NCBI GenBank assembly: GCA_012031965.1 | Contig: JAAUSC010000024.1 | Coordinates: forward strand, 1,532-25,531 | Source: Scytonema sp. RU_4_4 | GTDB taxonomy: Bacteria > Cyanobacteriota > Cyanobacteriia > Cyanobacteriales > Nostocaceae | DNA length: 24,000 nt | Direction: 5' to 3' | Shown here: one piece after another, positions 2,826 to 22,957 of the stretch | Layout of the letters: each line of letters begins with the position of its first letter | Position numbering within the stretch: the first letter of the stretch is position 1 | The notes under the pieces: model-generated | What the model was told of the DNA's origin: nothing | The model's input: only the letters and a program-made list of their open reading frames with translations | Databases searched by the model: none | Program-made: the position numbers and the translations under genes

Positions 2826-3872
2826 CTAATACTTAATTCTTGGATCTACATAAGCATTGATAATATCAATCACAATACTAGCAACGACCACAATAGCCGC
2901 AAAAAATACCAACACTCCCTGTATTAAAGGATAATCCCGCGCATTAATGGCATCATATAATTTATTCGCCAATCCAGGCCAAGAAAAGGTAACTTCAGTC
3001 AAAATCGCCCCACCTAATAAAGACGCAAAGGTCAATCCCATAACTGTAATAACTGGAATCAGCGCATTTTTTAAAGCATGAGAAAACAGAATCTTTCTTT
3101 CTGAAATACCTCTTGCTCTTGCTGCTTCCACATAATCTGCTTTCAGAGTTTGCTTTAAATTCACTCGCACAATTCGCTCAAAAATACCACTGAGCAAAAC
3201 TCCCAAGGTAATACTAGGAAGCGCAAGATAATGTAAAGCAGTGAAAAACTGATTCAAGTTTCCACTCAATAAACTATCAACTGTATATAAACCAGTCATA
3301 CCATGTGGAGCTGGCATTGTTGTCGGGAAGCGCGTTCCTAAAGGAAACCAACCCAACTGCACTGCAAAAATCAATTGCAGAACCATCCCTGCCCAAAACA
3401 TAGGTAGCGAATATGTGATAATTCCAAATAATCGCCCTCCAACATCTAGAGCACTTCCAGGACGAGAAGCAGAAAGAATACCAATTCCAATTCCAACGAT
3501 AAGTGCGATCGCCATACTGCAAAACGCTAATTCCACAGTTGCAGGAAAATATTGCCCAATCACCTCCCAAACCGACTGTCCACGACTCGCTATAGAAGTT
3601 CCTAAATCCAGACGCAGCAATTTTCCGATGTAATTCAAGTACTGTAACCATATAGGAAGATTTAAACCCAGTTTGGCTCGCAATTCTTCCTTCGCACTTT
3701 CTGGCGCACGTCCACCAAGAATTGCATCTACTGGATCTCCTGGTGTTGCACGTAGTAGGAGAAACACGACTGTAGTAACAGTCAAGAGCATCAACGGAGC
3801 TAAAAGTAAACGGGCAAAAATGTAATATTGTAAGGCTTTGGATCTAGACATAATAAGCAATTCAAAGTTCAA
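2826..3872 (-). CDS. ABC transporter permease, peptide/nickel (DppB/OppB-like) family; likely start at ATG 3851
   Basis: About six predicted TM segments. N-terminal LLRATPGDPVD motif and the EAA-type loop YVEAARARGISERKILFSHALKNALIP are typical of the OppB/DppB family. Confidence 0.9.
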   Translation of the reverse strand: MNFELLIMSRSKALQYYIFARLLLAPLMLLTVTTVVFLLLRATPGDPVDAILGGRAPESAKEELRAKLGLNLPIWLQYLNYIGKLLRLDLGTSIASRGQSVWEVIGQYFPATVELAFCSMAIALIVGIGIGILSASRPGSALDVGGRLFGIITYSLPMFWAGMVLQLIFAVQLGWFPLGTRFPTTMPAPHGMTGLYTVDSLLSGNLNQFFTALHYLALPSITLGVLLSGIFERIVRVNLKQTLKADYVEAARARGISERKILFSHALKNALIPVITVMGLTFASLLGGAILTEVTFSWPGLANKLYDAINARDYPLIQGVLVFFAAIVVVASIVIDIINAYVDPRIKY

Positions 3873-8960: not shown

Positions 8961-10181
8961 ATGGTCAATCAGAAATTAACCGCTCCTGAAATTGGATTTA
9001 CTCACGACGATTTCGCTGCTCTGCTAGACAAGTACGATTATCATTTTAGCCCAGGCGATATAGTACCAGGTACAGTATTCAGCATAGAGCCACGCGGCGC
9101 TCTGATTGACATAGGTGCTAAAACAGCAGCATATATACCTATACAAGAAATGTCTATCAACCGGGTAGATAGCCCGGAAGAAGTCTTACAATCCAACGAA
9201 ACACGGGAATTTTTCATCCTTACTGATGAAAACGAAGATGGTCAACTGACGCTATCCATTCGCCGTATTGAATACATGCGGGCTTGGGAACGTGTACGAC
9301 AGTTGCAGGCAGAAGATGCAACTGTCCGTTCTGGCGTTTTTGCTACCAATCGTGGTGGAGCTTTGGTGCGGATAGAAGGCTTACGTGGATTTATTCCTGG
9401 TTCTCATATTAGCACCCGCAAACCAAAAGAAGAGTTGGTTGGCGAAGAACTGCCATTAAAATTCCTAGAGGTAGACGAAGAACGTAACCGCCTTGTTTTA
9501 TCTCATCGTCGTGCGCTGGTTGAGCGCAAGATGAACCGCTTAGAAGTTGGAGAAGTCGTGATTGGTACTGTACGCGGTATTAAGCCCTACGGTGCCTTTA
9601 TTGATATTGGCGGCGTGAGTGGTCTACTTCACATCTCCGAAATTTCCCACGAGCATATAGATACACCTCATAGTGTCTTTAATGTCAATGATGAAGTTAA
9701 AGTCATGATCATTGACTTAGATGCAGAACGTGGTCGTATTTCCTTGTCTACCAAACAACTGGAACCTGAACCAGGCGATATGATTAAGAATCGCGATTTG
9801 GTGTATGACAAGGCAGAGGAAATGGCTGCGAAGTATCGGGAACAACTGCTAGCCAAACAGCAAGGTGCTCCTGCGGCTCCTGCTGCATCAGCTGAAGCCG
9901 CAGAAATTGTGGGTGAAGAAATACCTGCAGAAATTGTGGGTGAAGAAATACCTGCAGAAATTGTGGGTGAAGAAATACCTGCAGAAATTGTGGGTGAAGA
10001 AATACCCGCAGCAGTAGCAGTTGAAGAAGAAATACCCGCAGCAGTAGCAGTTGAAGAAGAAATACCCTCAGCAGTTGAAGAAGAAATACCCGCAGCAGTT
10101 GAAGAAGAAATACCCGTAGCAGTTGAAGAAGAAATACCCGTAGCAGTTGAAGAAGAAATACCCGCAGCAGTTGAAGAGTAA
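8961..10181 (+). CDS. rpsA: 30S ribosomal protein S1 with a C-terminal acidic tandem-repeat extension
   Basis: MVNQKLTAPEIGFTHDDFAALLDKYDYHF is the typical cyanobacterial S1 N-terminus (ATG 8961; the track starts earlier at GTG 8877). Three S1 domains are followed by a 93-aa repeat tail. Confidence 0.93.
   Translation: MVNQKLTAPEIGFTHDDFAALLDKYDYHFSPGDIVPGTVFSIEPRGALIDIGAKTAAYIPIQEMSINRVDSPEEVLQSNETREFFILTDENEDGQLTLSIRRIEYMRAWERVRQLQAEDATVRSGVFATNRGGALVRIEGLRGFIPGSHISTRKPKEELVGEELPLKFLEVDEERNRLVLSHRRALVERKMNRLEVGEVVIGTVRGIKPYGAFIDIGGVSGLLHISEISHEHIDTPHSVFNVNDEVKVMIIDLDAERGRISLSTKQLEPEPGDMIKNRDLVYDKAEEMAAKYREQLLAKQQGAPAAPAASAEAAEIVGEEIPAEIVGEEIPAEIVGEEIPAEIVGEEIPAAVAVEEEIPAAVAVEEEIPSAVEEEIPAAVEEEIPVAVEEEIPVAVEEEIPAAVEE
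9900..10178 (+). repeat. In-frame tandem repeats inside rpsA: 27 bp x4 (AEIVGEEIP), 30 bp x2 (AAVAVEEEIP), 24 bp x4 plus a partial copy (xAVEEEIP)
   Basis: Directly visible, nearly perfect tandem copies. Track ORF 9668-10186 on the minus strand is an antisense artefact of these repeats. Confidence 0.95.
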
Positions 10182-10284: not shown

Positions 10285-10894
10285 ATAACTCATCCTTGAG
10301 CATAGGCGAAATTTGTCCCCAGCTTCCAGTGAAGACAAACGTCTCAATGGGCTTGCGTTGGCGTGGAGAAAACTCGCGCTGTCGGTATTGTTCGGGTAGC
10401 GCTTCAGAGTCGCCAGGGTATCCAATAGCGATCGCTGCGACTGGCTCATATCCCTCAGGAATATTGTACAATTCTCTTGCCTTAGACACGTCAAATCCTG
10501 CCATCTGGTGGATAAACAGACCTAAAGAAGTCGCTTGAATTGCTAGAAGACTAGCCGCCGCTCCAACATCATGAAACGCATGACGGTTTTCATTACCATT
10601 TCTTTCAAAGTAAAGCTTCGCTACCGAAATCATTAGGACGGGGGCGTTTTTTGCCCATACTTGATTTCCTTGTGCTAAACAACTCAACAGACGGTTGAAT
10701 TCCTCTGGATTGTCCTGAGTAGCAACGATAAAGTGCCAAGGCTGCTCATTAAATGAAGAAGCTGCCCAACGAGCAGCTTCCAGCAAACTGCAAAGCGTTT
10801 TTTTTTCAAGAGGTTGACTGGAAAATGCCAGGGGGCTCCAGCGCTGTTTCAGCAAGTCATGAATTGGAAATTGGGTATCAGCAGGTTTCTTCAT
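10283..10894 (-). CDS. Nitroreductase family protein
   Basis: LLKQRWSPLAFS and the overall size and sequence resemble the nitroreductase fold family. ATG 10894 (MKKPAD...) is preferred over the track start GTG 10927. Confidence 0.8.
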   Translation of the reverse strand: MKKPADTQFPIHDLLKQRWSPLAFSSQPLEKKTLCSLLEAARWAASSFNEQPWHFIVATQDNPEEFNRLLSCLAQGNQVWAKNAPVLMISVAKLYFERNGNENRHAFHDVGAAASLLAIQATSLGLFIHQMAGFDVSKARELYNIPEGYEPVAAIAIGYPGDSEALPEQYRQREFSPRQRKPIETFVFTGSWGQISPMLKDEL

Positions 10895-11007
10895 AACAGT
10901 GCCTAGTATTGCGTTTTCTGAGGACACAAGCCGCTAAATCTCAGTGAAAATTTTTACCTGAAGCGTTAAATTCTAGAACAGATTTCATCTAAACCTCCAG
11001 GAGACCC

Positions 11008-11034
11008 CCACCAAAACTGTACTCAGTTTGGTGG
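11008..11034 (-). repeat. Right-end subterminal imperfect hairpin of the IscB element
   Basis: CCACCAAAACTG-TACT-CAGTTTGGTGG: an 11-bp stem with one bulged A and a 4-nt TACT loop. Same design as the hairpin at 12703-12731. Confidence 0.55.
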
Positions 11035-11130
11035 CGGGAGGATGTCCGGGTTAATTGTGAAACGTCCCTTAAATGATTTTGTGCGTTAGCACAAACAATG
11101 AGAGGGACAGTTGAGCAATTAACAAATCTT

Positions 11131-12414
11131 CTATTGTGCATACGAGTAACCATCTTTTGCGTGAATGCGTTTACAAAACTTGTGCGATATTCCTTGAACT
11201 AATCCGTTTTTAGCAGAAATATTGAAACTACCTGACGAACGGATAGCCACTTTCCCAATATAATTACCAACCTTTTTACCAGTGGTGACGACTGCTTTTA
11301 CGATGTCACCAGTTTGAAAATTAAAGTGTATTTTTTCTCTTGGTACGTGTCGATGTGGGAAACCGAATTTATCTGTGCGACATGATTGCCTAGCTCCGTG
11401 TCCGTTAGCTGTAATTAACAATGGTTTGGCTCCTTTAATAATCAGTTTGGGTGTTGATTTCCCAACACAAGCCGCATCTAACCAGTGAGTCTTTTCTAAT
11501 TTTTGTTGACTTCTGTTGAACTTTGTTAGACCTCCTGAACCCGTTTCTACAGGCAATCCTGTCTCTTTTAAAATTCTAAATAACGCCCACCGAGTTGTGT
11601 TCACAGCGGCTGCATCAGCTAATGGTCTTTTAGCTTGTGCCAAAATTTTTGATAATTTAGCTGGGTCTTTTTTGAGAAACTCTTTGATATCTTTTGTCCC
11701 TTTTTTGGTGTTACATTTATCGCAACTTAAGGTGAGATTTGTAATAGAATTACTACCTCCCTTCGCTCGCGGGTGAATGTGTTCTACCTGAAAAGGAACG
11801 TCTTTAACGCCACAATAAGCACATTGCCTACCCCACTTTTCAAGTAAATATTCCCGCGTTTCGTAACCTGCTAAAGTACCTTGCTGATATTCCTCCCCTT
11901 TGATATCTGGATTACGCATTAACTGCATATCAAAACGGACTAATTCCTGACTAATAGCCTTAATTGGTGCAAATCGGCATAACTTATTAACCCAGGTTTC
12001 AATATTCTCGACACGGCTTTGTAAGCTCGGTGCTAACCATCCTTTTGGACGTGTTCTGTTTAAAAATCTTGGCGCTCTATAACGAGTTTTTCTAGCGCGT
12101 CTACCACGTCTTAATTGTCGTCTAGATGTTAAAGCTTCTCTAATAGCAAAGCCGCGATGTTTTAATTCTGCTGCAAATACGACTTCGCCAGTAGTCTCGT
12201 TGATTAATGCAATTCCTGTGAATTTTGCGCCTGGGTCTATTTTTAATCGCAGTGATGACACTGGTGAATCTGGTCTTGATTCTTTCAAAATAATTGTGAA
12301 CGGGAAGCGGCGATAAACTGCTGCTTTTTTGTTCCTTAATAACTGTCTAGCTTGTGCTGAATGAATTGGTAAGAGTGGTATGAAGTCTGTATCTAAAACG
12401 AATACTTTGCACAT
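11131..12414 (-). CDS. iscB: IscB-type RNA-guided nuclease (Cas9 ancestor family): PLMP-like N-terminus, split RuvC, bridge helix, HNH
   Basis: FIPLLPIH is PLMP-like. RuvC-I is LKIDPGAKFTGIAL (D60). The Arg-rich helix is RRQLRRGRRARKTRYRAPRF. RuvC-II is ISQELVRFD (E157). HNH is CAYCG...VEHIHPRAKGGSNSITNLTLSCDKCN (C198/C201/C231/C234, H212, N226/N235). RuvC-III is HWLDAACVG (H310/D313). 427 aa. A strong AAGGAGG Shine-Dalgarno sequence lies 6 nt before the ATG. Confidence 0.9.
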   Translation of the reverse strand: MCKVFVLDTDFIPLLPIHSAQARQLLRNKKAAVYRRFPFTIILKESRPDSPVSSLRLKIDPGAKFTGIALINETTGEVVFAAELKHRGFAIREALTSRRQLRRGRRARKTRYRAPRFLNRTRPKGWLAPSLQSRVENIETWVNKLCRFAPIKAISQELVRFDMQLMRNPDIKGEEYQQGTLAGYETREYLLEKWGRQCAYCGVKDVPFQVEHIHPRAKGGSNSITNLTLSCDKCNTKKGTKDIKEFLKKDPAKLSKILAQAKRPLADAAAVNTTRWALFRILKETGLPVETGSGGLTKFNRSQQKLEKTHWLDAACVGKSTPKLIIKGAKPLLITANGHGARQSCRTDKFGFPHRHVPREKIHFNFQTGDIVKAVVTTGKKVGNYIGKVAIRSSGSFNISAKNGLVQGISHKFCKRIHAKDGYSYAQ

Positions 12415-12745
12415 AAGTGCCTCCTTTCGGGTAATGTTAGCCTGGACAATGATTTAAAGGCTTTTTACGCTAACAACACTGACTCAAACCCAATGATTCT
12501 GTTTAATTGTTAACCTCAGGAGCCACTGCGTTGCCGGAGAGAAGTGCCTTGCGCGGGTTAAGCGCGTTGTGGCAACTTCGGAGGTTCCCCCGGTTGTAGC
12601 AAGTGGCGTAGCTACAAACTGGCTGCGTATTTGTAGGTGAGATGACCTAAAAATCGTAGTGAATTAACACTTAGTCGGGTAAACTCTAGGCTTTAAAAGC
12701 CCCCACTGTATTAGGTACTCCTAATCAGTGGTGGGTAGTTTACTA
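12415..12745 (-). ncRNA. Candidate omega RNA (HEARO-type guide RNA scaffold) of IscB; 5' end approximate
   Basis: About 330 nt upstream of iscB with no ORF. It is locally G+C-rich and densely self-complementary. Hairpins: 12703-12731, then TTGTAGC (12594-12600) / GCTACAA (12611-12617), then GAAGTGCC (12541-12548) / GGCAACTTC (12571-12579) enclosing GCGC-N7-GCGC. The position matches the known IscB locus layout. Confidence 0.6.
12703..12731 (-). repeat. Left-end subterminal imperfect hairpin of the IscB element
   Basis: CCACTGTATTAGG-TACT-CCTAATCAGTGG: a 12-bp stem with one bulged T and a TACT loop. Confidence 0.55.
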
Positions 12746-13013
12746 TTTTACACATTGACATATTCAAAGATTTTGACATATTGTTAACAAGTTCGCGTTA
12801 ATGAGATAACCTTAACAAAAGTTTGAGTAACCCTAACTTGCGTAAGCAAGCTCAACTTCACTCTGGTTTCAGACAAGCTCAAATCCGATCAGGGCATGAA
12901 AGCCCCTTCAACTAAACTTCAATAATGTTTCAGGGTTTTGCCTCTACCAATTTGGAGTACGAAGGCTCACCATTGTGAGATTCAACCAATATTGAACAGG
13001 AGAGAAGAGGCAA

Positions 13014-14243
13014 ATGATCATTTTCGACCCTATAACCTTGAGTGCTATTAGCCATACTCTCAATGCTGCTTCTGTCATCAGTGTTAGCATTCAAAATCAA
13101 TCGAACTTGAGTCTGAGTCAAGCAACAAAATCGAAGTTAGCAAAGAACCCAACAAAGCTTTCACACCTGACAAGAACGACGACTCCTACTCTCGTAGCCC
13201 AAGCCACCACTTCAACACCGAACTCAGATACGAGCAAATGCGGTTCTGGTCAATCACGCGATAAGTACACACAACCATTTGCCTGCGACAGCATTTGGAA
13301 TATGCCAATTGGAGCGAACGCGAAATACGTTGATGCTTATATCGGCTCAACGGGCGTTGGAGTTGACACAGACTGGTTCATCATAACCCAGGAAAGCGAC
13401 CGGGCTGTGTCAACTTATATGCCTGGTTCGTGGGGTCCAGGTCGCTGCACTGGCACTCAGGTGCAGCAGCAAGCGCAATGGCATCCCGAAGCGGGTGAGC
13501 TGTTGAAAGTTCCTGAGAGTCTCATCATTGAGGATGCAAGTGGAAACTTTACTCCAAACGGCTCCTCAGCCTTCCTGAAGCCGGATGGCAGAACACTAGT
13601 GTCTTTTAACGTGACCACCCGTTGTCAACAGGGTGCCCCGCTTTACGGCGTTTGGTTTGGACAGCAAGACATTTACGGCGATGGCATTGATGGTGGGCAT
13701 GGCGGCTCAGGAATGTCGAGCATTGGCGGTAGCATTCGCAAAGGTGAGTTGTTGAACGACGAGCCTATCCGTCACGCACTCAAGATTGATATCTGGGGCA
13801 AGTGGCTGCATTACAATGCTTCATCGTCAACCCCTGGTCACCGCTGGCCAGCCCGTCTGGCTGATTCTAATGCATCATCCCAATACCAGGGGTCCAATCC
13901 AGCACTGGTCATGGGTTCCTTACTAGCAATTCCACCTAATGTCACAGCCGAGAGCCTAGGACTGACCAGCAAAGCAGGTAAGAAAATCTTCCAAGCTATG
14001 CAAGACTACGGTGCTTACGTCGTTGACAATTCAGGCTGGGACTACAATTACCTCTGCGTTGAACAGAGCGCCGAGCAAGAGTATGAGACAGTTACCGGAC
14101 ATGAGATTCATGGAGATGCAGCGCTCCAAGCGGACTTCGCCAAAATTATTGCTGCTGTGAAGGTTGTGGACAACAACAAATCGAACAGTATTGGTGGAGG
14201 TGGTACACCACGCCAACCTTTGGCACCACCACTTGGAAATTAA
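13014..14243 (+). CDS. Hypothetical protein (409 aa) with an S/T-rich linker; compositionally atypical
   Basis: Long ORF with GGAGA upstream of the ATG. Hand counts of several 60-nt lines give roughly 45-65% G+C, against about 38-47% in neighbouring genes. Many G/C-ending codons. No family recognised (motifs GHGGSGMSSIGGSIRKGEL and HALKIDIWGKW). Confidence 0.7.
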   Translation: MIIFDPITLSAISHTLNAASVISVSIQNQSNLSLSQATKSKLAKNPTKLSHLTRTTTPTLVAQATTSTPNSDTSKCGSGQSRDKYTQPFACDSIWNMPIGANAKYVDAYIGSTGVGVDTDWFIITQESDRAVSTYMPGSWGPGRCTGTQVQQQAQWHPEAGELLKVPESLIIEDASGNFTPNGSSAFLKPDGRTLVSFNVTTRCQQGAPLYGVWFGQQDIYGDGIDGGHGGSGMSSIGGSIRKGELLNDEPIRHALKIDIWGKWLHYNASSSTPGHRWPARLADSNASSQYQGSNPALVMGSLLAIPPNVTAESLGLTSKAGKKIFQAMQDYGAYVVDNSGWDYNYLCVEQSAEQEYETVTGHEIHGDAALQADFAKIIAAVKVVDNNKSNSIGGGGTPRQPLAPPLGN

Positions 14244-21747: not shown

Positions 21748-21780
21748 ATATTCCCTGCATATTCCCTGCATATTCCCTGC
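21748..21780. repeat. 11-bp tandem repeat ATATTCCCTGC x3
   Basis: Directly visible perfect copies in the deacetylase upstream region. Confidence 0.9.
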
Positions 21781-21805
21781 AAAAAGTCGGTTTAGAGATA
21801 TTTTG

Positions 21806-22877: not shown

Positions 22878-22916
22878 CAGTGAACAGTGAACAGTGAACA
22901 GTGAACAGTGAACAGT
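22878..22916. repeat. Heptamer tandem repeat CAGTGAA x5 (STRR-like)
   Basis: Directly visible. It begins 6 nt after the methyltransferase stop. Confidence 0.9.
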
Positions 22917-22927
22917 TATCAAGCAAT

Positions 22928-22957
22928 TGATAACTGATGACTGATGACTGATAACTG
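22928..22957. repeat. Heptamer tandem repeat TGATAAC/TGATGAC x4 (STRR-like)
   Basis: Directly visible. Confidence 0.9.

Follow-up and report, generated by a model that had tools for sequence, protein, structure and literature searches.

The window analysed here is a 24,000-nt stretch of Scytonema sp. RU_4_4 (contig JAAUSC010000024.1, positions 1,532 to 25,531). A nitroreductase gene and a gene for a 409-aa protein of this Scytonema-like cyanobacterium are divergently oriented, and the intergenic DNA between them holds the element that concerns us: an iscB gene and, upstream of it, a structured RNA, both on the minus strand, with a hairpin close to each end. An original prediction, made from the letters alone, had read this arrangement as an RNA-guided IscB/OMEGA element. 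Searches with protein profiles and with the HEARO RNA model and a comparison with related genomes all agree with that reading.

The iscB gene, the ωRNA and the ends of the element

The iscB gene (11131–12414, minus strand) encodes a protein of 427 aa, so that the Cas9-like nuclease of the original prediction is present at its stated size. A Shine-Dalgarno-like GGAGG, read from the sequence at 12420–12424 (minus strand), lies 5 nt upstream of the ATG and is 82–91% conserved in relatives. The iscB product matches the curated equivalog NCBIfam NF040563 (guided_IscB, 'RNA-guided endonuclease IscB') over the whole profile (1–314 of 314) with 457.6 bits (1.8e-137; cutoff, 175 bits), and Pfam RRXRR over the whole model (1–174 of 174) with 239.5 bits (2.6e-71; cutoff, 25 bits). 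Three HNH models are matched as well, HNH itself at 1.9e-12. The best matches in the PDB are IscBs (TbaIscB, 2e-39; OgeuIscB, 7e-24; HfmIscB, 5e-22), with IsrB and Cas9 far lower.

The protein begins with RRXRR, and its RuvC fold is split by an HNH domain. PLLP at residues 13–16 is PLMP-like and aligned with the PLMP of TbaIscB and OgeuIscB. The RuvC motifs are IDPG with D60 (RuvC-I), QELVRFD with E157 (RuvC-II), and THWLDAA with H310 and D313 (RuvC-III). The HNH domain (residues 198–238) contains VEHIHP, ITNLTL, and CDKCN with H212, N226, and N235, as well as two CxxC pairs. The counterparts aligned to these catalytic motifs in OgeuIscB are IDPG, ELNRF, HH, and HYLDA. An Arg-rich bridge helix occupies residues about 98–122, of which RRQLRRGRRARKTRYR makes up residues 98–113. 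The RuvC and HNH catalytic motifs are invariant among 49 relatives, and the gene is under strong purifying selection (dN/dS 0.08–0.13 against nine relatives).

Residues about 321–427, which are conserved among relatives, presumably form the TAM-interacting domain (TAM, target-adjacent motif). The C-terminal 107 aa have no match among PDB sequences at E ≤ 10, the profile alignment to the IscBs in the PDB ends at about residue 346, and an AlphaFold2 model made with the 49-sequence alignment (82–89% identity) has a mean pLDDT of 50 and a pTM of 0.41, from which we draw no structural claim.

A protein identical to that of the window is recorded from a metagenome-assembled genome of Scytonema sp. 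RU_4_4. Close relatives carry the NCBI name 'RNA-guided endonuclease IscB', and the JGI name for many of them is '5-methylcytosine-specific restriction endonuclease McrA'. That automatic name and the presence of an HNH domain would suit a stand-alone McrA-like HNH restriction endonuclease. We consider such an enzyme exceedingly improbable here, given that the HNH domain sits inside a split RuvC with an RRXRR N-terminus, that the protein falls within the curated IscB equivalog, and that the gene is obligately associated with the ωRNA and transposon ends described below.

The region upstream of iscB is ORF-free (ORF, open reading frame), and its fold is more stable than those of 100 of 100 shuffled sequences (z −3.1). 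A full-length match to Rfam HEARO (RF02033; model 1–211 of 211) places the ωRNA scaffold at 12431–12743 (minus strand, 313 nt), ending 17 nt before the iscB ATG. The match scores 102.9 bits (E 1.7e-20), above the gathering score of 83 bits, and the ORF-free structured RNA that had been proposed upstream of the nuclease gene is thus borne out.

To set the limits of the element, we took 80 related loci from Nostocales genomes and aligned their flanks. The homology limits in 73–74 of these loci give a whole element of 1755 bp (10989–12743, minus strand). On the ωRNA side, the first homologous base is G12743, the very base at which the Rfam model begins (position 1). The element start reads GTAAACTACCC there (family consensus GTCAAC), and the DNA 5' of G12743 is unlike in every copy. 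On the other side, homology continues through ...CTCCTGGAGGTTTAG and is followed by ATGA in 24 of 24 aligned relatives and then by A in 20 of the 24. Past ATGA(A) the copies are unrelated, so that homology stops at 10989 or 10984. The span first proposed, 10990–12760, was therefore nearly right, except that 12744–12759 is host DNA supplying the predicted guide.

For ISC elements of cyanobacteria whose 5' terminus is GTCA, empty sites have shown that N^ATGA is the point of insertion (Kapitonov, Makarova & Koonin 2016, PMC4810608; caret, junction). We therefore count ATGA as part of the target, outside the element. The putative TAM and target motif of the transposase TnpA is TTCAT (10984–10988, plus strand; ATGAA on the iscB strand), in the flanking DNA 5' of the left end (LE) and outside the element. 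The plus strand, which is the top strand in TnpA terms, carries in order TTCAT, the LE (from 10989) with its hairpin, iscB, the ωRNA, and the right end (RE, to 12743) with its hairpin; iscB and the ωRNA are encoded on the bottom strand. The RE finishes with ...GTTTAC on the plus strand, 8 nt past the hairpin. TTTAC resembles a transposon-encoded motif and is unlike TTCAT at positions 3 and 5. In the ISGst5 element, GstIscB likewise has TTCAT as its TAM when the motif is written 5' of the left end, and in ISGst elements the TAM and the right-end motif are unlike at the same two positions (Meers et al. 2023, bioRxiv 10.1101/2023.03.14.532601). No direct repeats flank the element in the flank alignments of relatives, and a repeat search found no long terminal inverted repeat. 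A generic repeat finder run on 10700–13100 returned short chance-like matches only and did not pick the two hairpins as a pair.

The LE hairpin (11005–11038, plus strand), which is located 3' of iscB and was delimited by folding and covariation, is imperfect and reads CCCGCCACCA-AACTG-AGTA-CAGTT-T-TGGTGGGGG on the iscB strand. The RE hairpin (12700–12735, minus strand), identified by the HEARO match and by folding, is the first stem-loop of the ωRNA. Two matching hairpins had been proposed at the outset; both exist and have a common consensus, but the upstream one is not a feature separate from the RNA. They share the design CCCRCCAC, an inner stem, a GAGTAC loop, an inner stem with one bulged base, and GTGGGGG. 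The RE hairpin has a folding energy of −21.8 kcal/mol (z −4.4 as RNA, −4.6 as top-strand DNA), and the z-score of the LE hairpin as top-strand DNA is −3.3.

In 23 distinct relatives, 96.6% of the positions expected to pair in the LE hairpin do so, 10 of the 15 pairs are changed on both sides, and none of 500 shuffles is as good; slid controls are 38–52% paired. Compensatory variants of the RE hairpin are also visible among relatives. Co-variation between LE and RE within elements is weak (mean score 13.5 versus 11.9, permutation p about 0.016, with an element's own LE rarely top-ranked), and the two ends share a family consensus and not element-specific stems. Comparative genomics thus identifies the hairpins as conserved transposon ends, as opposed to unrelated dispersed repeats, and the LE hairpin is presumed to be a binding site of TnpA. 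Between this hairpin and the iscB stop codon, 11064–11108 (minus strand) contains an inverted repeat, GTCCCT...AGGGAC with an inner TTTGTGC...GCACAAA, that is kept only partly in relatives.

An IscB with its catalytic motifs, a HEARO RNA, a conserved ATGA(A)/TTCAT end, a variable end on the ωRNA side, the hairpins, and a multi-copy family are thus all found directly. We have little doubt that the locus is a non-autonomous ISC-group transposon of the IS200/IS605 superfamily carrying iscB and an ωRNA, and no result speaks against this identity. Judging from membership of the family, the iscB product would be expected to cleave DNA in an RNA-guided, TAM-dependent manner.

The protein has weak partial matches to Cas9 chains in the PDB and, within its HNH region, to models of Cas9d and Cas9. 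A degenerate type II CRISPR-Cas9 or Cas9d locus, now without array and adaptation genes, would account for them. The two model matches reach 47 bits against a cutoff of 375 for Cas9d and 21.5 against 100 for Cas9. Moreover, the protein has 427 aa and no recognition (REC) lobe, the RNA is a HEARO RNA and not a tracrRNA, and the ends are of the IS200/IS605 type. In the whole window we found no CRISPR-like array, no tRNA, and no cas genes (cas1, cas2, and cas4 included), in agreement with the original prediction, which had noted the lack of an array and of cas1/cas2. A CRISPR origin of the locus is hardly credible.

Insertion, guide and proposed life cycle

Anabaena azotica SJ-1 contains five copies of the element, whose flanks are unlike on both sides, and a second paralog with 84% identity, on a 1.45-kb contig (P0088), is named from the same Scytonema metagenome-assembled genome. 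A contig of Iphinoe sp. preserves the gene order of the window (substrate-binding protein (SBP), 110-aa ORF, psbB, S1, nitroreductase, 414-aa protein, M50/CBS peptidase), with only 317 nt and no IscB between the nitroreductase gene and the 414-aa gene. The Iphinoe intergenic DNA is 90–94% identical to the window up to 12748 (through ...ATATGTCAATGTGTAA), and identity resumes at 10921. This syntenic locus without the element indicates that the element was inserted at the Scytonema locus. It is not a clean empty site: the 66 nt next to the TAM (10922–10988) are missing, replaced by 15 unrelated nt. Those 66 nt, which in the window separate the TAM from the conserved leader of the nitroreductase gene, match nothing in the other fetched loci. 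Two further loci have a different neighbour gene and are of no help as empty sites.

The element had been described as an accessory insertion beside a compositionally foreign gene. The first half of that description is in line with the element-free Iphinoe locus, and the second half is not. The neighbouring ORF (13014–14243, plus strand, 409 aa) is indeed GC-rich (0.50–0.55 versus about 0.42 around it) and has no Pfam or NCBIfam match, but its 414-aa ortholog occupies the same syntenic position in element-free Iphinoe. Therefore, the gene is a resident of the locus and not cargo of the IscB element, and it forms no island with it.

As the original prediction had stated, there is no tnpA in the window. 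Pfam searches and inspection of ORFs found none in the 24 kb, nor was one found within 4 kb of the 80 relatives; a regular-expression search for the HUH and Tyr motifs and a tblastn search with a TnpA probe gave no match better than E 0.97. The element is thus non-autonomous, its mobility would depend on a gene located elsewhere, and the lack of a transposase gene counts against mobility of this copy. In general, only about 1.5% of iscB genes are linked to tnpA (bioRxiv 10.1101/2023.03.14.532601).

The lack of a nearby tnpA would also suit an IscB domesticated for a host function in defence or regulation, in the manner of the nuclease-dead regulators derived from TnpB, and so would the position of the element, immediately 5' of a host gene that has the same orientation. 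However, unlinked tnpA is the norm for iscB, as the low linkage rate illustrates. The catalytic residues are intact, the transposon ends, TAM, and flank-derived guide have all been kept, the relatives are multi-copy at unrelated sites, and a related genus has no element at this locus. We regard domestication as very unlikely, and return to the element as a transposon.

In ISGst elements, the HEARO RNA upstream of iscB is bounded by the RE, and cleavage of the donor joint has been reported (bioRxiv 10.1101/2023.03.14.532601). At the present locus, the predicted guide is 5'-GUCAAUGUGUAAAAUA-3' (12744–12759, minus strand), in the host DNA adjoining the RE; its length is assumed, by analogy, to be 16 nt, and the sequence is unique in the window. 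Since the identity with the Iphinoe intergenic region covers the first 12 nt of this guide, these are native intergenic DNA kept in the element-free ortholog, which shows that the predicted guide is native flanking host DNA. Upstream of the guide, a promoter scan of the minus strand did not find a sigma-70-like site, a point against current activity. Because the element separates the nitroreductase gene from its conserved upstream region, read-through from that gene's own promoter is a reasonable candidate source of ωRNA transcription. On the plus strand, 12755–12784 reads as a promoter-like TTGACA-16-CATATT with a TG extension (10 of 12 matches), which overlaps the flank encoding the guide and points towards the gene at 13014; the element therefore seems to sit in a divergent promoter region.

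The published mechanism of the family (PMC4810608; bioRxiv 10.1101/2023.03.14.532601) would apply to the locus as follows. A Y1 transposase (TnpA) encoded elsewhere would bind the two hairpins on the plus (top) strand. Its cuts would follow TTCAT at the left end and TTTAC at the right, and the element would move as single-stranded DNA ('peel and paste'). Excision would leave a scarless joint in the donor DNA that reads GTCAATGTGTAAAATA^ATGAA on the iscB strand; sequencing of the religated joint would be expected to give ...GTGTAAAATA^ATGAAATC... Transcription entering upstream of 12759 would yield an ωRNA that starts with GUCAAUGUGUAAAAUA, a segment copied from the right-end flank. By means of this guide and the ATGAA TAM, the IscB-ωRNA complex would recognise the donor joint, where HNH and RuvC would then cut the DNA. 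The cut would force recombination with the sister chromosome, by which the element would be re-copied. The occupied site would be spared, because there the match to the guide is followed by GTAAA instead of the ATGAA TAM.

The 90-nt insert in the ωRNA

Where 64 of 74 relatives have 51–52 nt, the ωRNA of the window has 141 nt. Length comparison and an exact junction with respect to relatives delimit an insert of 90 nt (12520–12609, minus strand), which is absent from 70 of the 74 relatives (about 95%). Its neighbours are ...GUUUGUAGCU on one side and CUGAGG... on the other, and the conserved hairpin CCUACAAA...UUUGUAGC lies immediately 5' of it; in the Rfam consensus this is the GCU^CUG junction, an internal loop or junction. 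The insert (ACGCCACTTGC...GCAGTGGCTC) has inverted ends GCCACT...AGTGGC with a second, nested hairpin unit inside, and folds alone at −35.5 kcal/mol. The 'apparently intact' copy of the original prediction is thus intact in its protein but not in its ωRNA.

A 91-nt unit 98.9% identical to the insert is present at 873–963 of another cyanobacterial contig (L086), in an unrelated context, and a second, diverged copy is located at 1229–1283 of the same contig, 270 nt from the first. A 44-nt version without the inner unit is found in Heteroscytonema (locus L003, about 975–1018), outside any IscB element and with CCTCTGCC on both sides. Given a near-identical unit in an unrelated context and the shorter version in Heteroscytonema, the insert is a small dispersed repeat, similar to a miniature inverted-repeat transposable element (MITE), that has come to lie in the ωRNA. 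When metagenome contigs were scanned for its exact pattern, one further locus only was returned. The repeat looks like one of the tiny, nested mobile repeats that occur in heterocystous cyanobacteria.

The repeat within the scaffold makes the activity of this copy uncertain, and we put the chances that it is still active at roughly even. Several observations speak against activity. Besides the rarity of the insert among relatives, the HEARO score of 102.9 bits is lower than the 119–150 bits of insert-free relatives, whose ωRNAs measure 222–224 nt. Only 28 of 70 base pairs are kept when minimum-free-energy (MFE) folds with and without the insert are compared, and 19 pairs form between insert and scaffold, though the insert-free MFE fold itself departs from the Rfam consensus. 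In MFE folding, the insert segment GCUACAA can also compete for the 3' arm of a conserved hairpin.

The same element may accordingly be dead or dying, with its ωRNA disabled by the repeat, no transposase, and an iscB ORF that has not yet decayed. This reading has a substantial chance of being right, if somewhat short of even. The rarity of the insert, the lowered score, the altered fold, and the lack of tnpA in the window and near the relatives would all follow from it, and a comparable insert of 57 nt puts a copy in A. azotica below the Rfam gathering score. Against it stand the complete iscB ORF with every catalytic motif and the intact ends and TAM. In addition, the insert is self-complementary and can form an arm of its own, at an internal loop or junction and not in a conserved helix. 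The folding comparison is a weak argument for inactivation, as the insert-free MFE fold also fails to reproduce the Rfam consensus. Finally, two other lineages with independent inserts in the same hairpin region keep a full-length iscB.

These two inserts are unrelated to the repeat in the window and fall in the region equivalent to 12500–12640. One, of 45 nt, is at the same junction (locus L009, about 3800–3850; HEARO score, 95.8 bits). The other is the 57-nt insert (L017), which lies in the loop and belongs to one of the five otherwise near-identical copies in A. azotica SJ-1. The three independent inserts raise the possibility, tentative and in our estimate rather unlikely, that the ωRNA hairpin region around 12520–12640 is a natural hotspot tolerating small cyanobacterial dispersed repeats. 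Alternatively, the small repeats may act as an off-switch for IscB elements, driven by the host or by the repeats themselves.

Neighbouring sequences, related systems and significance

Other genes in the window include psbB, S1, RecR, and parts of an ABC transporter, and they identify the stretch as chromosomal DNA of a cyanobacterium. The S1-domain (rpsA-like) gene ends in 24/27-nt tandem repeats (9898–10177, plus strand) that encode (A/V)EEEIPA-type peptide repeats; its product has 434 aa in the window and 402, 427, and 443 aa in orthologs. Perfect intergenic tandem repeats consist of an 11-mer ×3 (21748–21781), CAGTGAA ×5.6 (22878–22916), and TGATAAC ×4.3 (22928–22957). These repeats are reminiscent of the short heptamers that occur in tandem arrays in heterocystous cyanobacteria.

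Among solved structures, the protein is most readily compared with OgeuIscB-ωRNA (PDB 7xht, 7utn, 8csz), TbaIscB (9k30), and HfmIscB (9k2z), with which it has in common a PLMP-like N-terminus, the split RuvC with HNH, the bridge helix, and the catalytic motifs. Sequence alignment with these IscBs spans residues 2 to about 320–346. In contrast, identity is low, the protein has 427 aa versus 496 aa, and its C-terminal roughly 80–107 aa are unaligned. The TAM of OgeuIscB differs as well.

The element resembles the ISGst5 IscB element of Geobacillus stearothermophilus in the TTCAT TAM at the left end, the differences between TAM and right-end motif, and the flank-derived guide (bioRxiv 10.1101/2023.03.14.532601). 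It differs in that it occurs in another phylum, encodes a divergent protein, has an ωRNA broken by the 90-nt repeat, and is known here from sequence alone. With ISC1-1_MA and other cyanobacterial ISC elements it shares the 5'-GT(C/A)A... terminus, insertion at N^ATGA, subterminal imperfect hairpins, and the lack of terminal inverted repeats; those elements encode only IscB and are mobilised by a Y1 transposase in trans (PMC4810608). Compared with ISC1-1_MA, the 3' terminus is ...TTTAG^ATGA instead of ...CG^ATGA, and the host is a member of the Nostocales instead of Microcystis.

Cas9 and Cas9d have in common with IscB, their proposed ancestor, the RuvC-HNH core and RNA-guided double-strand cleavage next to a 3' adjacent motif; unlike theirs, the locus described here is without a REC lobe, CRISPR array, tracrRNA, or adaptation genes. 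TnpB-ωRNA systems (IS605/IS1341-type) belong to the same transposon superfamily and follow the same TnpA-dependent life cycle and donor-joint homing logic (bioRxiv 10.1101/2023.03.14.532601). However, TnpB, the ancestor of Cas12, has RuvC only; with respect to the ends its gene is on the opposite strand, and the ωRNA is located at the 3' end of that gene (PMC4810608).

The element type, its RNA, the ATGA target, and its biological role are already published, the family is common among filamentous cyanobacteria, and the clade is abundant and automatically annotated in Nostocales; in the literature searched, we found no paper specifically on this Nostocales IscB clade. The locus adds one more compact IscB (427 aa) with a predicted ATGAA TAM, in a fully delimited example for which TAM, LE, iscB, ωRNA, RE, and guide are all assigned. 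The only unusual feature of an otherwise ordinary element is the 90-nt repeat in its ωRNA. As a natural experiment, this repeat could show where an ωRNA tolerates insertions. If the hairpin region is a hotspot, ωRNAs that bear an insert would still be functional, and the region would offer a permissive site for ωRNA engineering.

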